Shown here piece after piece: positions 2,449-58,866 of a DNA stretch of 64,000 nucleotides (position 1 is the stretch's first letter; every line of letters begins with the position of its first letter). The notes below the pieces were generated by a model. It was not told the origin of the DNA. It did not search any database and saw only the letters and a program-made list of their open reading frames with translations. This stretch comes from Escherichia phage 132. The stretch lies in sequence record MZ417521; one strand, given 5' to 3'. Made by a program: the position numbers and the translations under genes.

Positions 2449-4265
2449 TACTGGCTCATCCATTCTTTACGAAGGTCAGCATTATCCCCCATGAGCATTT
2501 CAAAAAGCTCTTTCCAGTTCTCAGGAAGTTTAACAACATCGTATACCGGATTTTGAATCATCTCACGATATTCAGATTTTTCCAAAGAGCCAAGTCCCTT
2601 AATATAACGGATGCTATGTTTAGGTAGAGCATCTTTGGCACTCTCATATTCAGCGACTGTATAAAACCATTCTTGTTTTTTACCGACCTGAGCGATGATT
2701 ACGGGAGTTTTGACGAAGCGAATTCTTCCTTGTTCAAACAGTTCTGGCCAATTACTAAAAAATCCGAGCAGAGAAGGATAAATGCTTCCTAGACCATCAT
2801 GGTCAGCATCGGTCATAATTGCAATATTGTGATAATTCAAGTTTTCAGCCTTTTCACCAAGAACTAATCCGGTGATTGCGCAAATATCAAACAGTTCTTT
2901 ATTTTTAAGCATATCAGCATATGACATACCCCAACTGTTGAGAACTTTACCACGCAATGGATAACCACCATGAAGTTCTTTATCACGAACATCAATAAGA
3001 TATCCGATAGCAGAATCACCCTCAGTCAAGAAAAGAGTAGTGTCAGCATCTTTACCACAAAGATTCGCTTTGATATGTTTATGAACCTTAGCTTTAGATG
3101 CCTTTTTAGCTGCTTTAGTTTCTGCTGCTTTTTCTGCCGCCAATTTACGAGCTAGTGCAGCTTCAATAATTGGCATCAAAATCGCTTCATTATTCAAAAT
3201 AGCACGTGAAATCTTTTTAGCATCAAGTTGAATATGACTACGGATTTCACCAAATGGAGAAGTCAAACGCTCTTTAGTTTGAGAATCAAATCGCATGTTT
3301 TTCATATCACGAACAAACATAACGATAGTCAAACATTCTTTAACACGCGCTTTAGTTACATCAATTTTGAACTTACGTTTGATTTGTGGAATAAGGTCTT
3401 CACAAATATCATCCATAACACAGTCAATGTGATGGCCACCATTCTTAGTGTGAATGTTATTCACGTAAGTTAATTGACGAAATCCATCCGGTGAACGACC
3501 AACCGCAATAGAACAATTTTCTTGTTCTTGAACGATAGCATGTTCATCATACTGTCGTGCATATTTCTTAAAATTGCCCTGAACCTTTTTACCATTAAAG
3601 GTAAATTGAATATCAGGATAAACAACAGCAAGTGTCTGGAGACGATCTAGCGTAATATCAAGATAAACTTGGGACAGCTCATTAGTTTCAAATGACATAA
3701 AATCAGGAATGAAAGTAACACGAGTTCCTTTCCATTTTCCAGGAATAGTTTCCCAGGATTTATTTTCCATGCCGTTTGAACAACGAACTACAATATTATT
3801 TTGACCATCGCCAGTTTCACCAACAAACATCACAGAAAAAATGTTTGTCAAACTAGAACCAACACCATTCATACCACCGGTGACGCGTTCTTTATCATCA
3901 CCGAAGTTACCACCTGCTTTTGGAATAGTCCACGCAGCAACAGGACCAGGAATTTCTTCACCGGTAGGTGTTTTAACCATCGCTTGTGGAATACCGCGAC
4001 CATTATCTTCAACTGTTACTTGATTGTTTTTAATAGTAACATTAATTTTATTTGCGAATTTAAACTTAGTACGAATACCTTCATCTACTGAGTTATCGAT
4101 AATTTCATCAATAAGCTTAACAAGACCAGGTACATACTGAACACTTTCCCATTTACCAAACAGAAAGCGCTCATGCATTTCATTAGCAGAAGAGCCAATA
4201 TACATGCCGCTACGCTTTTTGATATGTTCAATATCGCTCAGAATTTTAATTTCATTCTTAATCAT
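2448..4265 (-). CDS. 39: DNA topoisomerase II large (ATPase, GyrB-like) subunit, uninterrupted gp39 form (605 aa)
   Basis: GyrB-type ATPase motifs (EIIDNSVDE, NGRGIP); track start is GTG, ATG one codon in at 4263-4265 preceded by GAGGA; 605 aa as in phages where gene 39 is not split by gene 60. Confidence 0.88.
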   Translation of the reverse strand: MIKNEIKILSDIEHIKKRSGMYIGSSANEMHERFLFGKWESVQYVPGLVKLIDEIIDNSVDEGIRTKFKFANKINVTIKNNQVTVEDNGRGIPQAMVKTPTGEEIPGPVAAWTIPKAGGNFGDDKERVTGGMNGVGSSLTNIFSVMFVGETGDGQNNIVVRCSNGMENKSWETIPGKWKGTRVTFIPDFMSFETNELSQVYLDITLDRLQTLAVVYPDIQFTFNGKKVQGNFKKYARQYDEHAIVQEQENCSIAVGRSPDGFRQLTYVNNIHTKNGGHHIDCVMDDICEDLIPQIKRKFKIDVTKARVKECLTIVMFVRDMKNMRFDSQTKERLTSPFGEIRSHIQLDAKKISRAILNNEAILMPIIEAALARKLAAEKAAETKAAKKASKAKVHKHIKANLCGKDADTTLFLTEGDSAIGYLIDVRDKELHGGYPLRGKVLNSWGMSYADMLKNKELFDICAITGLVLGEKAENLNYHNIAIMTDADHDGLGSIYPSLLGFFSNWPELFEQGRIRFVKTPVIIAQVGKKQEWFYTVAEYESAKDALPKHSIRYIKGLGSLEKSEYREMIQNPVYDVVKLPENWKELFEMLMGDNADLRKEWMSQ

Positions 4266-11661: not shown

Positions 11662-12264
11662 TTATAGATTAAATCCTTCAAAATCAAGAGTATAGATAGT
11701 GTATGTTGAATACTTTTTATACTCATATCTATCCGCAATTCTAAATACACTTCCAGCTGGTATCATTACTTCTTGTTCATCTGAAACTAATTCCATATTA
11801 CGATAGCGATGGCTATCCGGAAACTTAAAACTTGGGCTATATTCTTTACAACGTAGAGCTTTTATAGCATACTCCTGAAAATTAAATACCATAGGAGCTT
11901 TGAATTCAAAAATAACTTGCGTGTTGTATTCTAATCCAGAAGCAAAATGCAGAGCTATATTTTTATCATATGAAGCTGATACTACTTTATCAAATGTAAT
12001 AATATCAATTCCTTGATTTAACACTTGCTTAGTCTCAACTGGAACACCTCTCCAAAGAGGTTTATCGTTTGGAACCAAACGAGATTTGATTATTTCATTT
12101 AACCAAGAATGATCGTCTGGCTTATTAGTAATACAATGAATTAAAAGTTCAATTTCGGATAAATTAAATCCTTCAGAAAGTAATTCTTCACGAATAGAAG
12201 CACGCACAGATGCATCCATTGATTTGATTTTAAAATCTTTTAATTGCATTGCTGAATATTTCAT
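11662..12264 (-). CDS. modA: ADP-ribosyltransferase ModA, 200 aa
   Basis: ART-like motifs (LWRG, S-x-S, EQEVMIP); same length as T4 ModA; tandem with modB. Confidence 0.7.
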   Translation of the reverse strand: MKYSAMQLKDFKIKSMDASVRASIREELLSEGFNLSEIELLIHCITNKPDDHSWLNEIIKSRLVPNDKPLWRGVPVETKQVLNQGIDIITFDKVVSASYDKNIALHFASGLEYNTQVIFEFKAPMVFNFQEYAIKALRCKEYSPSFKFPDSHRYRNMELVSDEQEVMIPAGSVFRIADRYEYKKYSTYTIYTLDFEGFNL

Positions 12265-12884
12265 TCAACTACCTCAATATCATACACTTTAAATGTTCCA
12301 AATGAATCGTGTAATTTTTCTTTTGAAATAGAAGTTATTTTATACTTTCCAATTGGAATCATCCATTCTTGTTCACGCACAATCATCATTAAGTTATCAG
12401 TACGTTCTGAATCTAATCCATCAGTATCTTCATATGTATACTTAAACTCAGTATTAGGAGAAGAAAGTATAATATCGCTGATATGGTCAGAGTAATTAAA
12501 AGCTTTATCAGTTTTTAAGCGAAGTACTATTTCAGTGAAATATTCAGCATAAGAAAAAGAACACGCTGTATGCAAACTAGTAGTAAATGAATCTACTCTG
12601 TTCGTTGAAAACACTTCTCCAACTTGTAAATCTTTAATGAGTTCTTTTGTCGATTTTGATATACCACGATATAGCTGATAAGGCGATTTAGTTAAATGCT
12701 TTTTAACGATTTTATTCAACTGCTGATGAAGAGCTTCATTCTTTTTGGCTTCCATACATTGCCAAAGAACTGACTGCTCAAAGTCAGTAAATTTTTCACA
12801 GACTTTTTTATACATATCATATTGAAAATCGACACTTTCAGCTTTTATAGATAACTGTTCAACATCTGCGAGATTAATAATCAT
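12261..12884 (-). CDS. modB: ADP-ribosyltransferase ModB, 207 aa
   Basis: ART-like motifs (LYRG, STNRVDSFTTS, EQEWMIP); start moved to ATG 12882-12884 preceded by GGAGG, giving the T4 ModB length. Confidence 0.7.
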   Translation of the reverse strand: MIINLADVEQLSIKAESVDFQYDMYKKVCEKFTDFEQSVLWQCMEAKKNEALHQQLNKIVKKHLTKSPYQLYRGISKSTKELIKDLQVGEVFSTNRVDSFTTSLHTACSFSYAEYFTEIVLRLKTDKAFNYSDHISDIILSSPNTEFKYTYEDTDGLDSERTDNLMMIVREQEWMIPIGKYKITSISKEKLHDSFGTFKVYDIEVVE

Positions 12885-17409: not shown

Positions 17410-18036
17410 TTAACCTCTATTCATAAAAGCATTAAAAATTTGATCGTCAATAGAAACTTTTACTTTAGACTGTTTTTCTGATGGCAATTCATATCCGCAT
17501 ATTACAATTTTGTGATCAATATCAAAATACACAGAAGCAATATGATTAATGATGTTTTCAGTAAAGTCTAAATCAACATCAATATCTTTTTGACCACAAC
17601 CTAAAGGATAAATAATGCGAGTAATTCGATTATCTTTAACAAAGATTCCACCGACATACTCTGTGCTGCGTTTAAAGTCTACACGCCGACGAAATGAAAA
17701 ATATTCAGGCTCTTTATGAGCTCGGCTCATAGGACACAACGAGTAACTAGAGTAAGAGATGTCAAATCCTACGCCTTCGATATGAGCCAAAGTGTCATGA
17801 TTAAACCAATTATAATCGTACGCCAAGTCCATTAGATTATAATATGTAAAAGGCACCGGATTAACATCACTAGTCACAAGCATATAATTAGCAACTGCTA
17901 TAATTTCGTTGTTTTTAACGAATACAAACCGTGATTGATGCGAATGACCTGGACCCGCGTTTTCACGATTAATGATATAACACTGGGCACCTTTATATTT
18001 GTACGTGTCTTTGCACTTGTGCATTTGATAAAGCAT
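17410..18036 (-). CDS. hypothetical protein, 208 aa
   Basis: ATG ORF between sp and gene 61. Confidence 0.5.
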   Translation of the reverse strand: MLYQMHKCKDTYKYKGAQCYIINRENAGPGHSHQSRFVFVKNNEIIAVANYMLVTSDVNPVPFTYYNLMDLAYDYNWFNHDTLAHIEGVGFDISYSSYSLCPMSRAHKEPEYFSFRRRVDFKRSTEYVGGIFVKDNRITRIIYPLGCGQKDIDVDLDFTENIINHIASVYFDIDHKIVICGYELPSEKQSKVKVSIDDQIFNAFMNRG

Positions 18037-18948: not shown

Positions 18949-19140
18949 TTACCCTCGCCAATCAGATTCAAAAACTTTTTTATCATTAACAAATGCTTTA
19001 ACTAAAGCTTTATTAACTTCAGCAAGTTGTGAAGTGACCCATAGAATTTGATCTTTATCAGACACATCCATAGTGATTTCTTTGGTAAACATATTACCAT
19101 TTTCAAACCAGCCAATAAAAACAATCTTTGCTAATTCCAT
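18949..19140 (-). CDS. small protein, 63 aa, at the position of T4 dmd
   Basis: ATG ORF immediately downstream of gene 41; sequence not recognised, assignment positional. Confidence 0.45.
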   Translation of the reverse strand: MELAKIVFIGWFENGNMFTKEITMDVSDKDQILWVTSQLAEVNKALVKAFVNDKKVFESDWRG

Positions 19141-57303: not shown

Positions 57304-57489
57304 TTAAAGCGTATTCACATAAGCTATTAATTCATTTTCTTTCTTATCAAACCGATCAGCAAATTCTTCCTGCTGTTCGGGAGATAACGGGCCGTATTCA
57401 TCATAAAAGGTGTTTGCTTCTGTATGCTCATCTAGAAGTTCATGGATAAGCTCAAATAATTTATCTTTTTGTTCTTTACTCAGACTCAT
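57304..57489 (-). CDS. small acidic hypothetical protein, 61 aa
   Basis: ATG ORF. Confidence 0.45.
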   Translation of the reverse strand: MSLSKEQKDKLFELIHELLDEHTEANTFYDEYGPLSPEQQEEFADRFDKKENELIAYVNTL

Positions 57490-57659
57490 ATATTAATTTC
57501 CAGGAGTTTTAAAATAATTCGCTTTTGCTTAAATATTTCCATAGTTAAATGACCAGTATCTTTTTGACCGATTCCAATGGCAAAACCTTTATTAACAGCG
57601 AGTTCAATTAAATTATCAAGCTCACGTAACACTTCGTATTGTAACTCAAAACTATTCAT
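57486..57659 (-). CDS. small hypothetical protein, 57 aa; below the ORF-track cutoff
   Basis: ATG at 57657-57659; stop forms an ATGA overlap with the next start; hand-translated. Confidence 0.3.
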   Translation of the reverse strand: MNSFELQYEVLRELDNLIELAVNKGFAIGIGQKDTGHLTMEIFKQKRIILKLLEINI

Positions 57660-57862
57660 TTTGGTTTACCTTCTTTAACGAAATCTGGATAAGGATAAAA
57701 TCCCGAATAAAATCCTTCACCTTTATGATTGATACATCCTTTATTAGAACAATAGCACCAATAATCGAAATCACAAGCCATTTCATCGTTGCATAAAGCA
57801 AAAACAACCGGCCACTTACACTTTTCACAATAGGCATTTTTAAGAATACTAGTTTGGCTCAT
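57656..57862 (-). CDS. small cysteine-rich protein, about 68 aa
   Basis: ATG at 57860-57862; 10 Cys including CEKCKW and CYCSNKGC. Confidence 0.4.
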   Translation of the reverse strand: MSQTSILKNAYCEKCKWPVVFALCNDEMACDFDYWCYCSNKGCINHKGEGFYSGFYPYPDFVKEGKPK

Positions 57863-58071
57863 AACCATGTCACCTTCAAGCAATATTCTTCTACATGCTG
57901 TTTACGACCTTTCTTATCAATAAAGGTATATTCAACGAATGTTCCAATGTAGTCTTTATCTACATCATGTAGGCTATTAATTGGGCATTTAGTACGGCAA
58001 ATGCGTTCCCATTGACGAATAATTTCTGCTTTGTTTTTAGGATCAAACGGATGCGGGTAATGCACTTTCAT
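57859..58071 (-). CDS. small hypothetical protein, 70 aa
   Basis: ATG ORF. Confidence 0.45.
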   Translation of the reverse strand: MKVHYPHPFDPKNKAEIIRQWERICRTKCPINSLHDVDKDYIGTFVEYTFIDKKGRKQHVEEYCLKVTWL

Positions 58072-58522
58072 AATCCACCACTATTAAATCAATATCAGGA
58101 GTAAACATGTCGATTAATTTAGAAACCTTATCCCAATCACCGCCAGCAATACCACAACCTATGCGTGGAATGTAAATTACTGGTTTAAACAAAAGGGTTT
58201 CTGCCTGTAGATTTAATTCTATCATGCAGTTTACTAAAGCACCATAATCAAGATTAGGACCTGGTTCGTATTGCGTATACAGGTTATAGCATATACCAAA
58301 ACCATTAGGTTTATGTTTAAAAACAATAGACATATCGCCTAATTTATCACGCGAACCATATTCAGTTGTGGTCTTATCTATTTCTAAAATTTTGGGATAG
58401 GCTCTTGCTAATTGACCCGCTACACCTGAACCCATAGTATGAAAACAGTTACACCCATGCGCAATAATATTACCTTGAAGAAATAGGGCGACAATATCGC
58501 CCTTGATATATTTTACAATCAT
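58043..58522 (-). CDS. macro-domain protein (ADP-ribose binding/processing fold), 159 aa
   Basis: macro-domain-like motifs: N-terminal GDIV...AHGCNC...GSGVAGQ and C-terminal IPRIGCGIAGGDW. Confidence 0.55.
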   Translation of the reverse strand: MIVKYIKGDIVALFLQGNIIAHGCNCFHTMGSGVAGQLARAYPKILEIDKTTTEYGSRDKLGDMSIVFKHKPNGFGICYNLYTQYEPGPNLDYGALVNCMIELNLQAETLLFKPVIYIPRIGCGIAGGDWDKVSKLIDMFTPDIDLIVVDYESALPASV

Positions 58523-58866
58523 CTAGTACTCAATCCTCGATTATAAGAATCTACCAAACGGTCAACCATTGAATGACAAGCGGCTTTATCTTTCTCCTCC
58601 GCAACTGAACATTCTAAGGTATTCCACTTTTTAGCATATCGTTTTAATAATGTATCGTTTTTGTATCTGCTTGATTTATCTCTTTCTCCGTCTTTATATG
58701 CATATATTAATTTCTGTGCAAATTCAGCTTGGCATGCTTTATTTTTCCCACAATAATCTGCCGCAGTGCGGTTTACATATTCTCTAATTTCAGTATATGA
58801 TGTATCTGCTGACGCAGAAGCAGAAAATGAAATTAATCCTATACATAAAACCAAAATTTTAGTCAT
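58519..58866 (-). CDS. secreted cysteine-containing protein, 115 aa (vs position)
   Basis: cleavable signal peptide (MTKILVLCIGLISFSASASA); four Cys in mature part. Confidence 0.5.
   Translation of the reverse strand: MTKILVLCIGLISFSASASADTSYTEIREYVNRTAADYCGKNKACQAEFAQKLIYAYKDGERDKSSRYKNDTLLKRYAKKWNTLECSVAEEKDKAACHSMVDRLVDSYNRGLSTR

Follow-up and report, generated by a model that had tools for sequence, protein, structure and literature searches.

A diverged tk.4 allele in a T4-like phage encodes a predicted glutamine-type macrodomain with a probable role against DarT2

Escherichia phage 132 (sequence record MZ417521) carries between tk.3 and vs a gene whose product resembles macrodomains. 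This raises the question of whether the protein acts against a host defence, tunes the phage's own ADP-ribosylation or serves another purpose. We analysed a stretch of 64,000 nucleotides of this phage, hereafter called the window. An earlier note on this DNA, made from the sequence alone, had described the product as a macro-domain protein and proposed that it counters defences such as DarTG or Thoeris or regulates ADP-ribosylation by the phage enzymes ModA and ModB. The ORF listing of the window contains a single long reading frame at this site, which opens with ATG (Table 1). All motifs quoted in the note occur in its product: GDIV at residues 8-11, AHGCNC at 21-26, GSGVAGQ at 31-37 and IPRIGCGIAGGDW at 118-130.

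The protein passed the threshold of the Pfam Macro family (PF01661; E=6e-8, 33.1 bits versus a cut-off of 22) with an alignment spanning profile positions 2-117 of 118, and it matched PHROG 335 at E=2e-71. Homologs are common, with 794 found at E<=1e-3 in a large protein collection; of 50,697 phage records, 2773 gave a tblastn match. A model computed with AlphaFold2 from 56 homologs (mean pLDDT 93.8, pTM 0.89) displays the three-layer alpha/beta/alpha macro fold, and its best Foldseek match was human TARG1/C6orf130 (PDB 4J5R; E=2e-10, TM 0.72/0.82). The nearest neighbours in structure and sequence were TARG1, DarG, Poa1p and SCO6735, and not proteins of the MacroD, PARG or macroH2A types. Two glycine-rich loops line the pocket, G31-S-G33-V-A35 and I121-G-C-G-I-A-G-G128, in which G33, G122 and G124 are invariant in the 56 homologs. 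The note had named two findings that would speak against a macrodomain, a structure prediction without the macro fold and a lack of the conserved nucleotide-binding glycine loops. Since the fold was obtained with AlphaFold2 and Foldseek and both loops are present and conserved in the alignment, neither finding was made. The macro-domain claim therefore stands on the Pfam match and on a predicted structure of the TARG1/DarG/Poa1p/BT1257 class, and the model places the window protein among macrodomains of the ALC1/TARG1-like class.

Homologs carry the name of a MacroD/YmdB-type deacetylase at JGI, an assignment that motifs and score rule out. The MacroD-type catalytic motifs, as given for Nsp3, are N-x6-GG[VLI]-D and G-[VIA]-[FY]-G (PMC8120803). 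Both are absent from the window protein, which reads N25-CFHTMG-SGVA and GIAGG, without the Asp and without the aromatic residue. The NCBIfam model for O-acetyl-ADP-ribose deacetylase gave 16.5 bits against a cut-off of 291.

The 2 kb around the gene are 98% identical to Escherichia phage RB3 and to many other Tequatroviruses, and the window comes from a Tequatrovirus. In the annotated maps of RB3 and T4 and among the ORFs of the window alike, the gene lies between tk.3 and vs. This common position makes the ORF the positional ortholog of T4 tk.4. As such it is already known: the gene is annotated and widespread, and a function has been published for the T4 ortholog. Its annotation in RB3 and T4 reads 'phosphatase; contains A1pp phosphatase motif', and an A1pp domain match for T4-like phages was reported in 2006 (PMC1524935). 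The statement that the phage also encodes ModA and ModB was borne out, as both genes were found in the window. Of the three anti-DarT genes described for T-even phages, the window carries two, tk.4/adfM and 61.2/adfA (Table 1).

Table 1. Features of the tk.4 locus and related genes in the window.
Feature	Position	Strand	Basis
vs (valyl-tRNA synthetase modifier), upstream neighbour that fixes synteny	58519..58866	-	100% amino acid identity to T4 and RB3 Vs; annotation
Translation start region: ATGA overlap and Shine-Dalgarno-like stretch	58519..58538	-	Read from sequence; identical in T4 and T6
Terminator-like element within codons 7-13: perfect GC-rich hairpin (AGGGCGATATTGTCGCCCT) with a T-rich tail after it	58485..58503	-	Pattern scan; RNA fold
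CDS of the tk.4/adfM ortholog, RB3-type allele, single macrodomain, 159 aa	58043..58522	-	ORF; Pfam Macro; RB3/T4 identity; AlphaFold2; fold
Active-site motif H-x-x-N, codons H22-G-C-N25-C26	58445..58459	-	H22, G23, N25 and C26 invariant in 56 homologs
Glycine loop 1, phosphate-binding, codons G31-S-G33-V-A35	58418..58432	-	G33 and A35 invariant in 56 homologs
Q84 codon (CAA), at the catalytic-lysine position	58271..58273	-	Invariant in 56 homologs
Glycine loop 2, codons P119-RIGCGIAGGD-W130	58133..58168	-	P119, G122, G124 and W130 invariant; A126, G127 and G128 in at least 90%
Mosaic allele patch, ~450 bp	58020..58480	.	DNA identity to T4 35-85%
tk.3, downstream neighbour	57859..58071	-	100% identical to RB3, 93% to T4 Tk.3
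modA	11665-12264	-	97% identical to T4
modB	12264-12884	-	97% identical to T4
61.2/adfA, DarT1-binding anti-DarT factor	17413-18036	-	96% identical to T4

The start of tk.4 overlaps the stop of the upstream vs in an ATGA (58519-58522), and a Shine-Dalgarno-like GAGGA...GAG (58529-58538) lies 6-12 nt upstream of the start, within the 3' end of vs. At its other end the macrodomain gene shares 29 nt (58043-58071) with the start of tk.3, compared with an overlap of 4 nt in T4. A four-residue C-terminal extension of the window protein (pLDDT <50) sits inside this overlap. A promoter scan returned no excess of sites over shuffled sequence, and we therefore claim no promoter. The hairpin within the first codons was predicted as a stem-loop by RNA folding and is identical in T4 and T6, despite 35-65% identity over the rest of the gene. 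A terminator is annotated at this site in several deposited T4-like genomes. The hairpin could attenuate read-through from vs or serve as an element for the processing or stability of RNA, or it could merely mark a recombination boundary.

The window protein is 98.7% identical to Tk.4 of RB3. Compared with T4 Tk.4, identity is 57% over 155 residues without gaps (E=1e-69); for the flanking proteins the values are 100% (Vs and Vs.1), 99.5% (Tk) and 93% (Tk.3). The diverged patch was mapped by the identities of 60-nt blocks from a global alignment to T4. DNA identity is 97-100% on the vs side down to ~58480, falls to 85% in the first block of the gene and to 35-70% across the gene body, and recovers by ~58013 to reach 92-100% further into tk.3. 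At the protein level, 40 of the 48 residues at positions 1-48 are identical and 6 of the 25 at positions 131-155. The window-type allele was found at >=90% identity in 312 phage records and the T4-type allele in 224. Further classes comprise 121 records at 60-80% to the window allele and 159 at 80-90% to the T4 allele. The T4-type allele is the one present in T2, T4 and T6, which means that no published phenotype applies directly to the window allele and the resistance of T2 and T6 is uninformative for the RB3-type allele. Divergence this deep would point to old alleles having been exchanged between T-even phages more than to a recent change in place.

The two alleles also differ in the second glycine loop. 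We compared the T4 locus (3423-3890) with the family alignment, in which A126, G127 and G128 occur in at least 90% of the homologs. The T4 loop, GIGKGNW, departs from the family consensus, and the GIAGGDW of the window equals it. Judged by this alignment, the window allele is more canonical in the diphosphate loop than the experimentally studied T4 allele.

Local divergence from T4 was seen at other places of the window. The dmd homolog, an antitoxin against RnlA/LsoA (18952-19140, minus strand), is only 67% identical to T4 Dmd, and srd, modA, modB and 61.2 near it are 96-98% identical to T4; dmd is a second anti-defence gene of the window with a locally diverged allele. The tk.1/tk.2 block (57304-57883, minus strand) likewise differs from T4. 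It holds a 61-aa ORF that is 54% identical to T4 Tk.2, and ORFs of 57 and 75 aa (equivalents of RB3_113 and RB3_114) that were unmatched in a comparison with eight T4 proteins (rI.1 to vs.1). A counterpart of T4 tk.1 was not found in this block. Two records with macrodomain matches bear Pseudomonas names. The best tblastn match (99.4%) was GenBank PV654520.1, 'Pseudomonas phage vB_PSGBLB0006' (142 kb, host label P. aeruginosa ATCC 9027), which is 98-99% identical to the E. coli T4-like region of the window, and the T4-type allele is found at 100% in OR584013, 'Pseudomonas phage PsgM02F'. For both records the Pseudomonas host label looks doubtful.

The active site was examined through residue conservation in the family alignment of 56 homologs. 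By MAFFT alignment, N25 of the H-x-x-N motif falls together with N22 of DarG and N23 of PhiKZ AdfM. H22 and N25 correspond to H24 and N27 of SCO6735. In loop 1, G33 stayed invariant after TARG1, DarG, PhiKZ AdfM and BT1257 had been added to the alignment. Where TARG1 (K84), DarG (K80) and PhiKZ AdfM (the lysine of FPTK) have their catalytic lysine, the window protein has Q84, and where TARG1 has D125 it has Ala126. Three alignments agree on both placements: the 56-sequence family alignment, a profile-to-TARG1 alignment and a MAFFT alignment with DarG, TARG1, BT1257 and PhiKZ gp104. Q84 is equated with Q85 of SCO6735 by transitivity via TARG1 K84, the direct SCO6735 alignment covering the C-terminal loop only. 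In that loop, the PRIGCGIAGG of the window protein is close to the PRIGCGLAGG of SCO6735 (PRIGCGLAGGTW), and G124 equals SCO6735 G128. The residues H22, N25, Q84 and G124 are invariant in the 56 homologs and kept in both Tequatrovirus alleles. The arrangement is thus that of SCO6735, with Gln in place of Lys, a conserved Asn in H-x-x-N and no Lys/Asp dyad. These residues place the T4-type AdfM family in the glutamine-type SCO6735/BT1257 branch; at the catalytic position it is not DarG-like.

The function of the T4 ortholog has been studied genetically. In a T4 transposon library grown on a DarTG2 host, tk.4 was the single significant hit, and a clean deletion of tk.4 sensitised T4 to DarTG2. 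In November 2025 the gene was named adfM, for anti-DarT factor Macrodomain. It could be dispensed with on plain E. coli K-12, scoring only with DarTG2, and enzymatic removal of ADP-ribose from DNA by T4 Tk.4 'seems likely' to the authors (bioRxiv 10.1101/2025.11.20.689424). T4 lacking adfA and adfN had been found to be still resistant to DarTG2, and by this residual resistance the earlier work predicted a further factor (PMC11825919). Tk.4 protein has been detected in T2-infected cells. The genetics of the T4 ortholog thus sustain, for DarTG, the counter-defence role that the earlier note had suggested, whereas we found no support for its Thoeris part or for a role in regulating ModA/ModB marks. 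By analogy with T4, the idea of a DarTG counter-defence is supported and would seem right, but it had already been published.

We consider it probable that the window ORF encodes a functional AdfM that removes the ADP-ribose of DarT2 from thymine in single-stranded phage DNA by a glutamine-type route. In the proposed mechanism, Tk.4 would bind, early in infection, the ADP-ribose that host DarT2 has put on thymine N3 of single-stranded phage DNA. Hydrolysis of the N-glycosidic bond by Tk.4 would restore a replicable template and defeat DarTG2 abortive infection. Catalysis would follow the route of SCO6735 and not the lysine route of DarG and TARG1: Gln84, held by Asn25, would position the distal ribose, and a backbone-activated water would do the chemistry. 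There is precedent for this in SCO6735, which cleaves DarT-made thymidine-ADP-ribose on DNA, with Q85A inactive and N27S nearly inactive; its proposed mechanism is water-mediated, with the Gln positioning the distal ribose, whose ring oxygen it touches in simulations (PMC9411070). Within the TARG1 class, DarG, TARG1 and PhiKZ AdfM also remove thymine-linked ADP-ribose (PMC13309987, PMC13036486).

Taken together, the fold and its class, the orthology, the phenotype of the T4 ortholog, the SCO6735 precedent and the invariant H22, N25, Q84 and G124 argue for this reading. Against it stand the missing lysine that is essential for catalysis in DarG, the acidic predicted pI of 5.25 and the identity of only 57% to T4 Tk.4. 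The sequence similarity to Poa1p, a small-molecule phosphatase, is moreover as good as that to any DNA-acting enzyme. The DNA-holding residues K34 and K89 of SCO6735 would fall near S32 and the G88-P89-N90 loop in a mapping by offset, which is not an aligned comparison. From the T4 ortholog and its relatives, we infer that the window allele acts like the T4 allele, through enzymatic removal of ADP-ribose, and that its substrate is thymidine-linked ADP-ribose on DNA.

The similarity to Poa1p suggests another function, namely hydrolysis of soluble ADP-ribose 1''-phosphate or O-acetyl-ADP-ribose in nucleotide and NAD housekeeping or in the clearance of RNA-repair by-products, as implied by the database label 'phosphatase' and the historic annotation of an A1pp phosphatase motif. 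The N-terminal half matches Poa1p at E=1e-6 including H-x-C-N-C, H22 aligns with Poa1p H23, which is mutated in deposited structures, and genes for NAPRTase, NAMPT or PRPP synthetase adjoin some bacterial and Vibrio-phage homologs. We nevertheless regard such a function as quite unlikely, given that the T4 gene is dispensable on plain K-12 and important specifically with DarTG2, and that no pathway yielding ADP-ribose 1''-phosphate in T4-infected E. coli came to light. Activities on soluble substrates and on DNA need not exclude each other. The protein might instead neutralise DarT2 without catalysis, by binding the toxin or by occupying or shielding ADP-ribosylated DNA. Although SCO6735 Q85A is catalytically dead, it continues to inhibit DarT in vitro, and more so than dead DarG or TARG1 (PMC9411070); furthermore, the evidence from T4 is purely genetic and the canonical catalytic lysine is missing. 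The pocket residues, including the Gln and Asn required in SCO6735, are however invariant in a family that extends over the 2773 phage records and many bacterial phyla, a pattern that suits an enzyme more than a binder specific for the toxin. The protein is also a single domain of 159 aa without a second, DarT-binding domain like that of DarG, and neutralisation without catalysis appears decidedly unlikely.

The window allele might also target a nucleic-acid ADP-ribosylation other than that of the T4 allele, for example a uracil-linked mark on RNA or one made by another DarT-like toxin. RNA carrying uracil-linked ADP-ribose is likewise a substrate of SCO6735, TARG1 and DarG (PMC13036486), and loop 2 and most surface positions distinguish the two Tequatrovirus alleles. 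The alleles nevertheless agree at every pocket residue of known importance, and the surveyed literature documents no bacterial defence that ADP-ribosylates uracil; we regard this shift of substrate as very unlikely. It is highly improbable that the protein erases or tunes the phage's own ADP-ribosylation, that is, the marks of Alt, ModA and ModB on host proteins or the RNAylation by ModB. The presence of modA and modB in the same window would fit such a role, and a macrodomain that reverses arginine-linked ADP-ribose exists in Legionella MavL. Alt, ModA and ModB modify arginine, and the substrates reported for the TARG1 class in the surveyed literature are glutamate- and aspartate-linked marks on protein and thymine- and uracil-linked marks on nucleic acids; arginine-linked ADP-ribose is not among them. 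In addition, tk.4 lies ~46 kb from modA and modB and is not linked to them, T4 tk.4 is not needed on E. coli K-12 and was a hit with DarTG2 alone, and homologs occur in many phage groups. We retain removal of the DarT2 mark from phage DNA as the preferred reading.

The origin of the gene was approached through the surroundings of its relatives. With one DarT2 query, tblastn found no DarT neighbour at the 80 bacterial relatives that are closest (35-44% identity) and that represent many phyla. DarT was likewise absent from the 25 Pfam families seen most often in 136 flanking ORFs, a count based on crude ORF calls in which rare associations could be missed. In the window itself, a DarT2 protein query had no tblastn match. 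The NCBIfam DarG equivalog model scored 27.6 bits against a cut-off of 250, from the macro part only. An origin as an orphan antitoxin derived from DarG, by analogy with AdfN, was rejected on the missing lysine, the low score of the DarG model and the lack of DarT among the neighbours surveyed.

The neighbours of the bacterial Tk.4-like macrodomain genes are heterogeneous and include NAPRTase (4 loci), NAMPT (3), NADAR (2) and PRPP synthetase (2). In the Vibrio phage records MK907780 and MW398869 the macrodomain gene abuts a ribose-phosphate pyrophosphokinase gene. These arrangements hint that in some lineages Tk.4-like genes are linked to modules for NAD salvage or reconstitution.

With an anti-DarT2 function, tk.4 explains in part why T-even phages withstand DarTG systems, and tk.4, adfA (61.2) and adfN (30.3) form a layered anti-DarT arsenal. 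The gene represents no new kind of system: it is found in hundreds of deposited genomes, has borne a macro/A1pp label since the mid-2000s and was assigned to DarTG2 in 2025. It is possible, though on balance unlikely, that the allele replacement records an arms race and not neutral mosaicism, with RB3- and T4-type proteins differing in specificity and the Gln chemistry constituting a phage-wide, DarG-independent eraser of nucleic-acid ADP-ribosylation. In that case, the differences in specificity would concern DarT2 variants, sequence contexts or bases, or the evasion of a host macrodomain sensor or inhibitor. At least two deeply diverged tk.4 alleles exist in Tequatroviruses, and they offer a ready-made natural experiment on specificity.

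Among known macrodomains, T4 Tk.4 (AdfM) shares with the window protein the tk.3/vs locus, a similar length (155 versus 159 aa), the macrodomain subfamily and the identical motifs H-G-C-N-C, G-S-G-V-A, N-L-Y-T-Q and P-R-I-G-x-G. It differs in more than two-fifths of the aligned residues and in its GIGKGNW loop, and the window protein has four extra C-terminal residues. Streptomyces coelicolor SCO6735 (PDB 5E3B), matched by the phage-family profile at E=8e-16, is likewise a stand-alone protein of the TARG1 class with Gln at the catalytic-lysine position, H-x-x-N, PRIGCG(L/I)AGG and no adjacent DarT. In contrast to the phage gene, it is a bacterial gene induced by DNA damage. Identity is ~25%, and its K34, K89 and longer mobile loop are not evidently kept, as far as the mapping by offset goes.

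TARG1 has the PRIGCG loop in common with the window protein and also removes thymine-linked ADP-ribose, but its catalytic dyad K84/D125 is replaced by Q84/A126. Similarly, K80 of the DarG macrodomain (T. aquaticus 5M31, M. tuberculosis 5M3I) is replaced by Q84, and the window protein, as one domain, has neither the C-terminal DarT-binding domain of DarG nor an adjacent darT. Yeast Poa1p (PDB 6LFQ), which has been described as a phosphatase acting on a soluble metabolite, aligns poorly in its central region. Of its probed residues, H23 is kept (H22), S30 is conservatively replaced (T29) and F152 is changed (A126). Bacteroides BT1257 (PDB 2AFC/2FG1) is among the structural class neighbours of the window protein.

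PhiKZ gp104, which is also named AdfM, is like Tk.4 a stand-alone phage macrodomain that counters DarTG2 (PMC13309987). It removes thymine-linked ADP-ribose in vitro, and N23A reduces this removal (Cell Rep 2026, PMC13309987). Unlike the window protein, gp104 is of the DarG type (E=9e-25 to DarG of M. tuberculosis) and keeps the lysine in FPTK. BLASTP between the two gave a barely significant E=0.001 over 33 residues. As gp104 is a relative of DarG and can barely be aligned to the window protein, the name AdfM covers two independent recruitments. Phages would thus have recruited macrodomains against DarT2 at least twice, with different chemistry.
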